From NCBI GenBank assembly GCA_964016885.1, contig OZ024759.1, forward strand, positions 6,324,001 to 6,388,000: a stretch of 64,000 nt of DNA, given 5' to 3'. Within the stretch, counting starts at the first letter, position 1. Each line of letters begins with the position of its first letter. The notes beneath the pieces were generated by a model. That model did not search any database and was not told where the DNA came from. It saw nothing but the letters and a program-made list of their open reading frames with translations. Position numbers and translations under genes: made by a program. The stretch comes from Eledone cirrhosa. Its lineage: Eukaryota. Below are positions 17,820-61,711 of this stretch, one piece after another.

Positions 17820-18010
17820 GTGACGAAGCATAAGTTAATTGCATGAACTCATAATCCTTTATTTACTGCTATATATATTTCGATGATAGCCATTGAATGG
17901 CTATGACTAACTGCCTGATGACATCATAGCCATTCAATGGCTATCATCGAAATATATATAGCAGTAAATAAAGGATTATGAGTTCATGCAATTGACTTAT
18001 GCTTCGTCAC
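17820..18010. mobile_element. Fold-back palindrome (87-bp arms, 17-bp spacer) in a TA tract; probable Penelope-like element terminal-repeat remnant
   Basis: 17820-17906 is the reverse complement of 17924-18010 with one mismatch; spacer plus right arm carry a hammerhead motif; (TA)n on both sides. Confidence 0.7.
17910..17965 (+). ncRNA. Minimal type-I hammerhead ribozyme motif (stem II base degenerate)
   Basis: Stem I ACTGC(17910-14)/GCAGT(17961-65); CTGATGA 17915-21; stem II hairpin ATAGCCATT-C-AATGGCTAT; GAAA 17949-52; palindromic TATATA then TA cleavage site. Closing pair of stem II is C.C instead of G-C. Confidence 0.7.
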
Positions 18011-18148
18011 TATATATATATTATATATATATGTGTAGGAGGTGAGTTTTATTGTAGCACAATCAAGCCATCTTAAATTATTTTTCATATGTTGATTTAA
18101 AACTTCACTGCTCACAAGTATTTTTTTAAGCTTCATATCCCGTCTCCC

Positions 18149-18219
18149 TATTTTATTTGATGAGAACGCAGATATCATCCCATGATGATATTTGTTTTTG
18201 AAATGAGCATAATAAAATA
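18149..18219 (+). ncRNA. Minimal type-I hammerhead ribozyme motif (C3->U variant)
   Basis: Stem I TATTTTAT/ATAAAATA (8 bp); TTGATGA 18157-63; stem II GCAGATATCATC-CCAT-GATGATATTTGT; GAAA 18200-03; TGAGCA then TA site at 18210-11. Confidence 0.7.
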
Positions 18220-19164
18220 CTTTGAACTCTTTTAACCATCTTTTTAACTTATATATATATATGAGAGTATTGAAGTTTGCTTGAAGCATTGTGGAGTAAT
18301 AAGGTAAATTTCTTTAAGTCGTTTGGAAGCCTCGACAATGCAGATGGGTAAATCTCCGGCTAACAAGATCCGGTGGTGGAGAGGGAGATGTAAGTGGGTG
18401 TACGTTGAGATGCGTGGCGTGTATAAGACTGTAGCGTGTAGAGGAATGAAGGAAAGAGCGTAAAGGATAAAAATAAAAATAACAACACGAGTTACCTTGG
18501 GAGAGATTTAATTGCCCCTATATATTTCGGATTCATATCCATCAACTGGGGGTTATTTCGGGGGGGGGCGGGGAGGTTGTCTGTCAGAAAGGTGTGAAAC
18601 GTGTCCTCTGCTGTTCGTTGTTTTGAATACACTGACATTAATGATTCACTCAATATGTATTGGTCATGGTGTAACAACACAATCCTTGTATTAATATCAT
18701 GCTCTACTTCTCAAATTCTTTGCTCAATATTACAGCTCACATCTACGTATCTTTAGCCAGCCTTCAGCAACGTTGTATCTCATAGTAAGTTTCTCAGGTG
18801 TTTTAATGATAGGGACCCCAGTCTTATCGTGTTACAGCTCACACCTATGTAGGTTTAGCCGGCCTCCTACAAGGTTGTATCTCATAGGAGGTTTTTTGGG
18901 TGTTTTAATGACCCAAGTCCCATCATGTTGTTGTTGATTTGGAGGTTTAGCTCGTCTCCTAGGAGTTGTAATCCTCTATCAATAAAACAGCCAAGATGCT
19001 TTCTATGTGATACAACCTTGTAGGAACTAAGCCTATATAGGCATGAGCTTTGAAATTTAGTTGAATATATATTGATAGTGGCCCTTGTCTTCACCCTGGT
19101 CAGTTTTATTACGGTCCTTAATAATCATCATCATCATTTAACATCTGCTTTCCCTGCCAGCAAA

Positions 19165-57679: not shown

Positions 57680-60600
57680 TTGCTATATGGTCCAATCATA
57701 ACTCAGCGGCTTTAGTAAGTTCTCTAACAAATCAGTATAGCAAAGCTGCCACCCCGGTTACTACTCCTTAAGTTTAGACCTGTTTGATGGGTTGACTGCC
57801 GAAATTTGGAAAGTCTAAGCACTCAATGACAATGTCACAGATGAAGATAAATTCACCTCCCGCTGCAAGACGAGAATACAAGGACCCCTCTTTATTTCAG
57901 ACACGGATGACCAACAAAATCCCGTCTCCCACACCCCTCCCTGCCCCTCCAACCCATACATCCCACCCTCCCAACTTCAGAGTTGGTACCATGAACGTAG
58001 GCACATTGAAAGGTCGCTCAAATGAGGTTGTAGAGATGCTTGAACGTAAAGAAGTTGATGTTTGTTGTATTCAAGAGACTAGGTGGAGAGGGGGATCTGC
58101 CAGATTCATCGTGGGTAAAAAACGATGCTATAAACTTTTCTGGGTGGGAAATGACAACAGACAGGGTGGAGTAGGAATTATGTTAGCTGAATAATGGGTA
58201 GATAAGGTAATTGACGTAAATATAGTGAATGACAGAATAATTAAAATAAGACTAGTTCTAAATAGAATTACTGTAACAATAATATCTGCTTATGCACCCC
58301 AATCTGGTTTACCTGACGTTATAAAGGACAGGTTCTATGAGATGCTAATGCACACTACCTCCCAAATAACCGACAGTAACTGCATAACTATAGCTGGCGA
58401 TCTAAACGGTCACATTGGACAACATAGTGATGGCTATGATGGAATCCATGGAGGCTATGGGGTTGGAAATAAAAATGAGGAGGGCTTCAGAATCCTGGAA
58501 TTCTGTGATGCTAATAACCTAACTATCTGTAACACAAACTTCAAAAAATGAGAAAACCACTTGATCACCTATAGATCAGGGGAACACGCCAGCCAGATAG
58601 ATTATATCCTTACTAGAAGACGGGACAAAGTGTCTGTTGTAAACACTAAACCTTCCAACATAGCCTAGCAGTTAGTGACCTCATAGTCAGGAATAGACGT
58701 ACTCGACGACAGAGGAAGTCTACCTTGAGGAGAAGAATATGGAAGTTGAAGGACCCCATAGCCAGTGACAAATTTAAAAGCTTATTACTTGATTCCTTTG
58801 ACAATAAGGAAGAGCAATTAGAGACGCGCAATATAGAGGAACAATGGCAATTCTTGAAAGTGAACCTGCTGAAAGCAACAGATGTAATCTGTGGCTGGAG
58901 CAGACCTATAGGCAGGGGGAGAGTAACGTGGTGGTGGAACAGTAAGGTGGAAGAGACAATCAAGGCCAAAAAGCAGGCTTGGAAAGTATGGCAGGATGGG
59001 AAGTAGAGAGCACTATCAAGTGGCCAGGAGAGAAGCTAGGAGACAAGTGTACCTTGCAAAAAGGGAAGCAGAGGATAGAAAGTTCAAGCATGTTCTACAA
59101 CGTGAGGACAAAAAACGTGAGGTGTTCAGGATTGCTAGACAATGTGTCAAGGAAAACCGTGATATTGTCGGGGAGAAGTGTGTCCTTAATGATGATGGTG
59201 TACTTGCCCTCACTGATACTGATAAGAAGATAGCCTGGAAGTGTCACTATGAGAGACTACTAAATGAGGAGAATAAATGGGAAAAAGATAGTCTGCCCCA
59301 AATCGATCCAATAGAAGGACCAGCAGTGCAAGTTAAAGGTAGTATAATAAGTAAGGCAATCAAAGATATGAAGACAGGTAAGGCAGCTGGACATTCGGAG
59401 ATAGTTGCTGAGATGTTGAAGGAATCTGGAATGGTGGGACATACTATGGTCACCCGTATAGTTAACCAAGTCATACAGAATGGGGTCATACCAAAAGACT
59501 GGCGTAGCAGCATCATCATTAACTGCTACAAGGGTAAAGAGGATGCTCTAGATAGGGGAAACTATAGAGGCATTAAGTTAGTTGACCAGGTCATGAAGGT
59601 CACAGAAAGAGTTATAGCACAACTAATCAGAGAGCGAATTGATCTAGATGAAATGCAGTTTGGGTTTGTGTCAGGTAAAAGTACCACAGATGCTCTTTTC
59701 CTTGTACGACAACTACAGGAGAAGTACCTAGCTAAAAGTAAACCCCTCTACTTAGCTTTTGTAGACTTGGAGAAAGCCTTTGACAGAGTCCCCTGCTCTA
59801 TTATCTGGTGGGCCCTTAGAAAGCTAGGAGTAGATGAATGGCTTGTGAGAGCTATACAAGCCATGTATAAAGAAACAATCAGCAAGGTTAGAATTAACAA
59901 TGAATATAGTGAAGAATTTAGTGTAAAAGTTGGTGTTCATCAAGGCTCTGTCCTTAGCCCCCTCCTATTTATTATTGCCCTTCAGGCTATAACAGAGGAG
60001 TTCAAGACTGGCTGCCCATGGGAACTCCTATATGCAGATGATCTAACGCTCATAGCTGAATCAATGGCTGAACTAGAGAAGAAATTCCAAACATGGAAGG
60101 AAGCATGGCCTAGAATCAAAAGGCCTTAAAGTTAACTTGTCTAAAGTTCTAGTTTAACTAAAGTTCTAGTTTGTAGAAAAGAAAATAAGGCACAGGTGTT
60201 CTCGGGGAAATGGCCATGCTCAGTGTGTAGGAAAGGAGTAGGCAGAAATTCCATTTTATGTTCCAAATGCAAAGTATGCGTACATAAAAGATGTAGTGGG
60301 ATCACAGGTAAACTATCTAAGAACGTAGACTTTATATGTGGCCGATGCTCAGGTGCAATAAGTAGCAAGTATCCACAGAATACAAGCTCCTTCTATTGCC
60401 CAGATGGTTCTATAGAAATAGTGGACACTTTCCGTTACCTGGGTGACAAAATCAGCAGTGGTGGAGGGTGTTCTGAAAGTAGAGTAGCCAGAAGTACAGT
60501 CAGAATGGGATGGAAAAAGTTCAGAGAGCTTATACCACTGTTGGCCACAAAAGGTTTCTCTCTAAAAATGAAATGCAGATTGTATGATGCTTGTATACGA

Positions 60601-61422
60601 ACAGCAATTCTACATGGCAGTGAGGTATGGGCATTACGTGCAGAGGACCTGCGCAGACTGGAAAGGAACGAAGCATGCATGCTCTGTTGGATGTGTAATA
60701 GTAATATACGTGGACGGCAAAGCATAAATGAACTAAGTGAGAAATTAGGAATAAGAGGGATCAGATGCTGTTTACTTGAGAGAAGACTATGTTGGTATGG
60801 CCACGTGATGCGCATGAAAGACGACAGCTGTATAAAAAAGTGCAGGGCAATCAAAATTGATGGTAGTTACGGAGTAGGTAGACCCAGAAATACCTGGGAC
60901 GATCTGATAAATTCCGACCTTACACACTTACACCTCTCCAAGACAATGTCACTGGACCGAGATCTTTGGCGCTATGCAGTAATACAGAAAACCCGCCTTG
61001 TCTATGTACAAAGCGAAACCTACAGTCAGTAGGCACCTCTTAACCAAATATACACCTCTATCCACTACCCCTACCCTATCATCCCACTCCCACCAACACC
61101 ACCCTCTCTCTGTAAAGTTGTTTCCACAACATCCAGTCCAAACAAATAAAATAATGAGATCGAGATCGTGTAGGTGTCACGACAAAAAACACACAGTCCA
61201 CGCTGTAATGTGGCCGTGTAGGTAACAAGGTAAAAAGTTCCCAGTTCCACACTGTAAATGTGGTTGGTGTTAGGAAGGGCATCCAGCCGTAGAAAACCTG
61301 CCAGACAGTCCTATATGAGTGAGACATGGTCACCCGACCAACCTTGCCTCAAGTGGGACAACTCCCGTCTAACCCATGCTAGCGTGGAAGATGGACGTTA
61401 AACGAAGATGATGATGAGATGA
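57680..61422 (+). mobile_element. Near full-length RTE-clade LINE (APE-RT with PHD-like insert), inactivated; 5' boundary approximate
   Basis: FRVGTMNVGTL, CCIQETRW, SAYAPQ, GDLNGH, SQIDYIL (APE); NYRGIKL, QFGF, DLEKAFD, GVHQGS, YADD, FRYLG (RT); stops at 58192 and 58549 plus frameshifts; (GAT)n tail. Confidence 0.96.
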
Positions 61423-61569
61423 TATATATATATATACATATATATATATATACATATATATATATATATATATATATATATATATATATATATATATATA
61501 TATATATGAAGTATTTTCATAGGAAGGGTAAAGGAAAGGAGAGTGTTCTATGTATACTACAGAGCTATT

Positions 61570-61711
61570 TAATTATGTAATAAACAACATAAGACAATTA
61601 TTCCATTTACCAAAGGTTTCACGAAGACAGACGAGCTCAACACAGACGTCTGTCTTCGTGAAACCTTTGGTAAATGGAATAATTGTCTTATGTTGTTTTA
61701 TTACTTAATTA
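61570..61711. other. Fold-back palindrome (about 64-bp arms, 13-nt loop) with a hammerhead 3' half
   Basis: ...TTCCATTTACCAAAGGTTTCACGAAGACAGACG-agctcaacacaga-CGTCTGTCTTCGT-GAAACCTTTGGTA-AATGGAA...; abuts (TA)n. Confidence 0.65.

Follow-up and report, generated by a model that had tools for sequence, protein, structure and literature searches.

Hammerhead-bearing palindromes in the Eledone cirrhosa genome as inverted pseudo-LTR stubs of Hydra-clade Penelope-like retrotransposons, with candidate capped starts at their centres

Results

Type-I hammerheads in truncated pseudo-LTRs

Judged by sequence, the elements in the window (the whole 64,000-nucleotide stretch analysed, contig OZ024759.1, positions 6,324,001 to 6,388,000) are pseudo-LTR (pLTR) stubs of Hydra-clade Penelope-like retrotransposons (PLEs). 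Their palindromes probably arose by the head-to-head joining of two cDNAs, each extended as far as the capped 5' end of the transcript or close to it. Each centre would then represent joined capped starts and not a fold-back of the ribozyme, which would explain the inverted ends of PLEs. The window loci consist of the following parts.

17820..17906, minus strand: family A pLTR inverted arm without tail (reference -26..+68 from GAAA), inner end in the stem II 5' strand
17904..18012, plus strand: family A pLTR sense arm without tail (reference -45..+68), overlapping the inverted arm by 3-4 bp
17910..17965, plus strand: type-I hammerhead A with minimal palindromic stem III (descriptor search)
18013..18071, minus strand: family B tail, inverted piece (reference +107..+164)
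18070..18262, plus strand: family B pLTR, sense, without tail (reference -129..+61)
18149..18219, plus strand: type-I hammerhead B, C3U in the window copy (descriptor search)
39420..39653, plus strand: family C pLTR with tail, not a fold-back (reference -60..+172), hammerhead at 39433-39503
45992..46065, plus strand: tail fragment of the sister family D2, an adjacent insertion
46095..46223, minus strand: family D inverted arm with tail (reference about -10..+117)
46224..46286, plus strand: family D sense arm, tail-less, with stem II 3' strand, GAAA at 46243, 5-bp stem III, UC and stem I 3' strand
61503..61652, minus strand: family E inverted arm with tail, loop II included (reference -32..+117)
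61647..61715, plus strand: family E sense arm, tail-less (reference -13..+54), GAAA at 61660, joined via a 6-bp stem II repeat

From primary sequence and predicted pairing, the five motifs were confirmed as real type-I hammerhead layouts in the pLTRs of five Hydra-clade Penelope-like families. All three full layouts claimed by the earlier note (17910-17965, 18149-18219 and 39433-39503) were recovered by a type-I descriptor, with 4 exact-core matches observed vs a mean of 0.1, and 6 relaxed-core matches vs 0.7, in 30 local dinucleotide shuffles. The 3' halves reported at loci D and E are also genuine, as the stem I strand, core and stem II 5' strand that they lack are present in other genomic copies. 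Among arms reaching the core, the canonical form was present in 60/63 (A), 50/52 (B), 79/81 (C-like) and 51/53 (E). Hammerhead B of the window has U at position 3, where 50/52 family arms reaching the core have C, and the D2 core is a U3-A8 variant in 15/21 such arms. No hammerhead family was found among the 115 matches of an Rfam scan at E<=10.

In an alignment of 14 D/D2 copies, 84.5% of cells were paired vs 23-51% when slid; three pairs had two-sided change, which is not above shuffles (288/500), and the covariation score gave 14/500. The D2 copy L277 folded as a three-way junction, which the lowest-energy folds of L288, L271 and L172 did not. In the L277 fold, loop II contains an internal hairpin at the position where D2 5' ends pile up.

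Three of the five window loci (A, D and E) are fold-backs, in which the 3' part is duplicated as an upstream inverted arm; this duplication had been claimed for four. The inverted piece of locus B (18013-18071) is far tail and duplicates nothing in the B sense arm, and locus C (39420-39653) has no inverted arm. The (TA)n flanks of the loci were confirmed, and tblastn agreed with the earlier reading in finding no PLE ORF in the window.

Linkage to Hydra-clade reverse transcriptase ORFs

Elsewhere in the genome, RT and GIY-YIG ORFs adjoin families A, B, C, E and D2, the sister of D. The PLE origin proposed earlier was therefore right and is now tied to coding elements. An 834-aa stop-free frame lies downstream of an A pLTR (locus L419), and broken homologues of it stand beside B, C, D2 and E. 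Pfam and PDB searches gave no match to the 834-aa ORF itself; a relative gave a weak GIY-YIG match in Pfam. RWR and DKT were present in 4/4 A loci and RWR in 1/3 D2 loci, and a strict pattern detected no RWK-like or DKT motif in the B, C and E copies. The CxCX5C linker occurs in A, B, C, D2 and E, and CxxC before the conserved E in A, B, D2 and E; in A and D2 the cysteine pair inside GIY-YIG is absent (no CCHH). No ORF link was found for family D in the 3 regions examined, and its placement follows from homology to D2.

Both (TA)n insertion and a canonical type-I hammerhead, which mark the Hydra clade, were found. This clade comprises C-terminal EN+ PLEs, Hydra-1_Obim being listed among them (Craig et al. 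2021, PMC8557442). Assignment to Neptune or Naiad was rejected on the CxCX5C linker and the C-terminal EN without CCHH. Rather than the separate non-coding families supposed at first, the loci are truncated pLTR insertions of autonomous Hydra-clade elements. DNA-transposon MITEs were likewise rejected: centres differ per copy, outer ends are unequal, many copies are single-armed and continuous with RT ORFs, and neither fixed TIRs nor a constant interior was found. A non-LTR retrozyme, which would consist of hammerhead-bearing units of a few hundred bases in head-to-tail tandem, was rejected because close pairs lie head to head, with no tandem array over the window loci.

Palindrome pivots and stem II

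It had been suggested that hammerhead stem II may be the site of snap-back or template switching and so set the pivot. As a general rule this was refuted, and we consider it very improbable as the cause of the palindromes. Loci recovered with queries containing the window's own junction were left out of the pivot-position counts and kept in the tail counts; inverted flags at very negative coordinates in family A are artefacts of AT-rich reference ends and were unused.

In support of the stem II proposal, 13 family E loci, including the one in the window (61628-61633 / 61647-61652), have their arms joined exactly at the 6-bp repeat of stem II. The E pivots are nevertheless scattered, with 43 loci pivoting just upstream of the core, and stem II was used in only 1/29 unbiased E pairs (rows L008, L009 and L320 of the E table belong to a related family). 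Nor is the side of the loop constant at E stem-II junctions: some have it on the tail-less arm (L032-L034), others on the tailed one (L031, L037, L038 and L047). In B, the pivots are concentrated some 60 nt upstream of the ribozyme (20/24 arm ends are upstream of it), where most A and C 5' ends also fall; one A copy (L119) does pivot on stem II. The D/D2 pivots do fall between the stem II strands, and the hairpin in the L277 fold would suit a snap-back, but they sit in loop II without stem-II arm pairing: 118/132 D2 arm ends are in loop II and at most 1 reaches the stem II 5' strand. D2 spacers vary copy by copy, and the whole-loop form predicted by arm pairing was seen in 0/61 listed (61-66 pairs were examined for D2 stem-II junctions).

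Within the window, a break inside or at the edge of stem II holds exactly only for E. At locus A, the inner end of one arm falls in the stem II 5' strand and that of the other 11 nt upstream of the core; this locus has a tail on neither arm and its pivot is not at the inferred start. At locus D the symmetry breaks in loop II, where the sense arm begins with G at 46224; the next base, A at 46225, lies 18 nt 5' of GAAA and is the inferred +1. The G of the window copy could also be assigned to the inverted arm. What stands of the stem II proposal is a recurrent microhomology in a minority of E junctions: any hairpin within an arm is present as a direct repeat on the two sides of the centre, and stem II thereby serves as a junction in these copies, either at integration or by later deletion.

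Tails and arm lengths

A tail was present on exactly one arm in 148/162 head-to-head pairs, the remainder being scored as tailed on both arms (ten) or on neither (four); the pair table counts L132 twice. Outer ends are fixed at two positions, the pLTR end and the tail end. Among the 148 single-tail pairs, the tailed arm was longer in 49 and the tail-less arm in 41 (p=0.46), and 58 were within 3 nt. The comparison of arm lengths could be obscured where palindrome centres underwent later deletion.

These data bear on a rival explanation, in which a single cDNA (or an antisense RNA) snaps back close to its end and serves as its own template, after which the endonuclease removes the tail of either arm at random as the element integrates. 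The arms within one D2 insertion are 95% identical vs 84% between insertions, a sharing of subfamily variants that suits self-copying as well as two-cDNA joining, and random trimming would likewise leave a single tail on either arm; self-priming has moreover been proposed for inverted-junction palindromes (PMC3846280, in the part cited). Nevertheless, a tail-less arm reaching further 5' (41/148) is not obtainable by one cDNA copied on itself, and in vitro a PLE protein primes from nicked target, its two RT starts matching the two outer ends (PMC11167929, in the part cited). On balance we regard self-copying as unlikely, also in view of the junctions described next.

An extra G at the 5'-end pile-ups

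The 5' ends pile up at an initiator-like A preceded by an untemplated G, sometimes on both arms. This A lies 18 nt 5' of GAAA in D/D2 and about 110 nt 5' of it in A and B. By hand count among the first 100 matches listed, the base before this A was G84:A16 in D2 (of 3,247), G74:A26 in D-type, G71:A29 in A and G42:A14:T44 in B. One base further out, the D2 control gave G22:A78 among the first 100 listed of 1,743 (p=3e-19). The +1 positions were chosen post hoc, after the data had been seen, and the neighbouring-base control covers D2 only. In E, where ends are scattered, G15:A9 of 24 was found (p=0.31), and C was barely sampled (1/5). Many arms stop short of the pile-up, and 17/187 D2 arms run through it. 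Microhomology with the other arm could account for about 14 of the 84 D2 rows with G and for many of those from B and D; in family A, a T-to-G change inside the (TA)n flank would look identical.

The extra G is likely the mark of a copied cap, and from the same ends we infer that the pile-up A is a transcription start; the Penelope promoter is located in the pLTR (PMC2377424). Among matches listed, the G was present on both arms in six D2 and two B insertions. Of the D2 set, three have a 1-nt spacer and one has none, which is too short for a fold-back loop and thus speaks against self-copying, as does the fact that an antisense template would not place G at the sense 5' end.

Alternatively, the insertions might at first have been longer palindromes whose present short centres, stem-II junctions included, were left by subsequent deletion between direct repeats on either side of the centre; the pile-ups would then be deletion or RT-stall hot spots. 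Palindrome centres are prone to deletion, and many junctions have 1-10 bp of microhomology. Deletion does not, however, explain why non-palindromic copies abutting (TA)n have the same A end and the same extra G, which makes it improbable in general; for window loci A and E it is a fair account.

Discussion

Joining of two cDNAs remains the reading we favour. One would be primed from each strand of a (TA)n target, using the two internal start sites of the element, and synthesis would continue up to the capped 5' end of the transcript or stop near it. The products would be joined head to head by microhomology or blunt ligation, so that the arms would be two separate cDNAs. For D/D2 the start inferred here is inside the ribozyme, in loop II. 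This would place the D/D2 pivots there, and would give a 5' leader without the catalytic core.

A tentative extension, to which we give less weight, is that a dimeric RT copies the same capped leader twice from two internal starts, and that the position of the start keeps the ribozyme from decapping the message. If so, A, B and C, with their dimer-dependent minimal stem III, would start upstream of the whole hammerhead, while the 5-bp stem III of D/D2 would fold as a monomer with the start in loop II; the D/D2 leader would be the substrate half only, and just the 3' pLTR copy could cleave. A start inside the ribozyme would, if true, be a simple route to a potentially active hammerhead only at the element's 3' end.

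The elements, hammerheads, inverted copies and tails were already known. How the inverted ends of PLEs form and what the hammerhead does are stated as open questions in the relevant passages of PMC8557442. They can be studied in this genome at tens of thousands of independent junctions: likely start sites can be mapped from DNA alone by the extra G, and arm-length symmetry and the presence of G on both arms discriminate two-cDNA joining from self-priming.

Comparison with known systems

Like the Hydra clade as described in the cited passages of PMC8557442, the families here have an RT with C-terminal GIY-YIG, RWK-like, DKT and CxCX5C motifs without CCHH, (TA)n targets, a type-I hammerhead near the 3' end, an inverted truncated copy and a one-sided tail. 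They differ in their tens of thousands of solo-pLTR stubs, and the ribozyme listed for Hydra-1_Obim differs from the five hammerheads here. A junction map, cap signature or start site is absent from those passages, which describe the origin of tandem/inverted structures as unresolved.

The palindromic stem III in A, B and C, the long stem II with 5' bulge and the U3-A8 core variant (D2) resemble the PLE minimal hammerheads in the cited part of Cervera and de la Pena (2014, PMC4209133). Opposite-strand pairs occur in both, 100-700 bp apart there and as close as 15-60 bp here. D/D2 are set apart by their stem III of 5 bp and by a loop II of 37-45 nt, which holds the inferred start.

The inverted pLTRs of Adineta vaga Penelope (Arkhipova et al. 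2013, PMC3846280, as far as cited) are similarly head to head, with a junction palindrome, a tail on one pLTR and an Inr-like motif. Unlike the self-priming on an antisense template proposed there, arm-length symmetry and the both-arm G favour two sense-templated cDNAs.

At full-length L1 5' junctions an extra G marks the cap, and L1 twin priming gives non-overlapping inverted segments (PMC11702581, in the part cited), whereas the two arms here are copies of one and the same 5' leader. In the literature searched, with subscription journals thinly covered, we found no report of cap G, twin priming or an in-ribozyme start for PLEs.

A biochemical parallel is the anole PLE protein PAc (Frangieh et al. 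2024, PMC11167929), which nicks both strands, extends them, and has been modelled as a dimer. PAc is from a Poseidon element, not Hydra, and inverted junctions are not addressed in the part of that study covered here. Nevertheless, its two RT starts bracket the tail and its template is uncleaved RNA, as would be the case for the Eledone elements.

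Hammerhead layouts and fold-backs in the window

A type-I hammerhead descriptor recovered the three complete layouts reported in the earlier note (families A, B and C below), and it also matched two window loci absent from that note's list. Exact-core matches numbered 4 in the window, whereas 30 shuffles averaged 0.1; an Rfam scan of the window matched no hammerhead. Each of the five loci below belongs to a dispersed family of the 3.0 Gb assembly, and aligning natural copies of the families with the window showed which have arms (the two head-to-head copies of a palindrome):

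17910-17965, family A hammerhead; locus a true inverted duplication, neither arm with a tail (the fixed extension beyond the pseudo-LTR, or pLTR, end)
18149-18219, family B hammerhead; inverted part a tail fragment only
39433-39503, family C hammerhead; no inverted arm
46095-46286, family D; true inverted duplication
61503-61715, family E; true inverted duplication

Fold-backs occur at three of the five loci, A, D and E, not at the four claimed earlier, and the symmetry break placed inside or at the edge of stem II is an exact stem II join at E alone.

Other features of the window were:

36963-37039 (-), a further family C piece beginning at GAAA (reference -1 to +75), previously missed
62800-63072 (-), a sixth repeated hammerhead-bearing family (992 candidates); its motif, 62825-62900, folds no better than shuffles, and Hydra-like ORF matches fall inside the regions retrieved for two relatives (L446, L448), a possible linkage
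26970-27097 (-), a type-I hammerhead-like motif with long stems that folds well (z -4.7), antisense inside the zinc-knuckle region of a LINE ORF1 (25920-27602); the LINE has AP-endonuclease and RT frames and its family many copies at 93-95%
35744-35913, a palindrome with 85-bp arms and zero spacer, matching none of the hammerhead families
37605-38194, inverted repeats of 164 bp, 88% complementary, with 262 nt between
1-17251, a large satellite with a 38-bp unit (x454), and 47336-53109, another with a 78-bp unit (x74)

The families derive from Hydra-clade Penelope-like elements

Exact pattern counts were 526 for E, 14,563 for B, 27 for D (35-mer) and 36,161 for D2, a sister family of D; longer genomic copies carry the 5' halves that D and E lack in the window. 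Where an arm extends as far as the core, the core is canonical in 60/63 for A, 50/52 for B, 79/81 for C-like and 51/53 for E, and 15 of 21 in D2 carry a U3-A8 variant, previously described for hammerheads of Penelope-like elements (PLEs) in the available text of PMC4209133. In an alignment of 14 D and D2 copies 84.5% of cells were paired, versus 23-51% with slid partners; the count of two-sided changes was not above shuffles. More related hammerhead-pLTR families with head-to-head pairs, E-like and a third D-like, were seen (L008, L009, L244, L284; L152, L279).

The genomic locus L181 reads 3' UTR, A pLTR, tail, RT and endonuclease, with the second pLTR following in L182, and L419 holds an 834-aa frame without stops. 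Broken homologous ORFs lie beside B (L428, L430, L436, L437), C (L433), D2 (L427, L441, L443) and E (L432); for D no ORF link was found in three fetched regions. Linkage to PLE RT/endonuclease ORFs, left as a check in the earlier note, was thus found beside A, B, C, D2 and E. Craig et al. define protein marks of the Hydra clade, and their supplement includes an octopus member (available parts of PMC8557442). RWR and DKT were found in family A proteins and CxCX5C in those of all five ORF-linked families, with no CCHH where proteins were readable. The targets are (TA)n. ORF linkage, protein marks and targets together show that autonomous Hydra-clade elements left the window loci as truncated pLTR insertions. 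The proposal of short non-coding PLE derivatives is therefore right in its PLE origin and wrong in positing separate non-coding families, and DNA-transposon MITEs are rejected on the same identification.

Kilobase-scale head-to-head B and D2 insertions (L428, L430, L437, L427, L443) have 1-5 kb separating the ribozymes, and in some of them both arms include the 3' part of the ORF.

Palindromes pivot at family-specific positions

Pivots (inner junctions) were surveyed in copies retrieved by patterns 3' of GAAA, and their position differs by family. Of 24 arm ends in B, 20 fall upstream of the ribozyme, mostly near -110 relative to GAAA; truncated A and C copies have their ends piled up between -100 and -114; ends in E scatter from 0 to beyond -130; and 118 of 132 D2 arm ends fall within loop II, where single-armed D2 copies also end. 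Stem II, proposed earlier as the snap-back point, was used in 1 of 29 unbiased E pairs; genome-wide, E has an exact stem II junction at 13 loci versus a pivot just upstream of the core at 43, and among the D2 matches listed the whole-loop spacer expected from stem II pairing occurred in 0 of 61 spacers. Stem II is therefore not the general pivot. Its recurrence at E junctions follows from a hairpin inside the arm becoming a direct repeat across the centre, and snap-back on stem II is highly improbable.

Pile-ups coincide with an extra G

The pile-ups fall on an A in a context that we take to be initiator-like; its distance 5' of GAAA is 18 nt in families D and D2 and about 110 nt in families A and B. 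The base before it is templated as C or T, yet is often G in truncated copies. Counted by hand on the first 100 matches listed for each family, this base was G84:A16 in D2, against G22:A78 one base further out (p=3e-19), G74:A26 in D-type copies, G71:A29 in A and G42:A14:T44 in B. Microhomology could explain about 14 of the D2 G rows, and without these the ratio is about 70:16; the E signal is weak (15:9 of 24) and C is undersampled. An extra G at L1 full-length 5' junctions is a cap signature (available text of PMC11702581), and the Penelope pLTR contains an internal promoter (PMC2377424). Judged from these sequence patterns, the pile-ups are very probably transcript starts.

The putative starts of A, B and C lie upstream of the hammerhead. 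A D/D2 start in loop II predicts a leader without the core and would account for the few D2 arms showing it (21/190). Stem III is 5-bp in D/D2 and minimal and palindromic in A, B and C, so that its type may correlate with start position across these few families, of which D and D2 are kin. A monomeric three-way junction is predicted for one D2 copy, and for none of the three other full copies folded (D2, D, E). All arms span the cleavage site and the template was therefore uncleaved, as also seen in vitro for an anole protein (available text of PMC11167929).

Probably two cDNAs rather than one

In each family the outer ends stop at either of two fixed positions, one being the end of the pLTR and the other the end of the tail. 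Among 162 head-to-head pairs the tail is on one arm in 148, on both in 10 and on neither in 4. At the centre of the 148, the two arms agree to within 3 nt in 58 pairs; the tailed arm is shorter by at least 4 nt in 41 and is the longer one in 49. Subfamily variants are shared between the arms (in D2, 95% identity within an insertion against 84% between insertions), which places the origin of both in a single source locus or a single RNA. Copying one arm from the other would never leave the tailed arm shorter, and the 41 pairs argue against it; self-priming with the tail trimmed at random (cf. available text of PMC3846280) is unlikely. Later deletion or stalling is distinctly doubtful as the source of the short centres and pile-ups; at window loci A and E, where pivots lie away from the putative start, microhomology joins or later deletions may be responsible. 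Both arms carry the G in six D2 and two B insertions among the matches listed, and in four of these D2 insertions the spacer is 0-1 nt. The best model, and probably the correct one, is that two cDNAs would each copy a short capped leader of the transcript and would then be joined end to end.

Comparison with known systems

Earlier publications already describe pLTR hammerheads, pairs on opposite strands, inverted copies, palindromes at junctions and tails on one side (available text of PMC8557442, PMC3846280 and PMC4209133). The elements are thus of a known kind, and the mechanism first proposed for them is mostly wrong. The literature searched, with subscription papers largely outside it, held no report of a PLE cap G, of two-cDNA evidence or of a start inside the ribozyme, and junctions are not treated in the available text of bioRxiv 10.64898/2026.07.22.740005, PMC6765202 and PMC6431247. 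The two-cDNA model replaces stem II snap-back with a better-supported, testable mechanism. Both strands of the target are extended by the anole PLE protein, which is modelled as a dimer and initiates at two sites on either side of the tail, in agreement with the tail and arm pattern of the palindromes (available text of PMC11167929).
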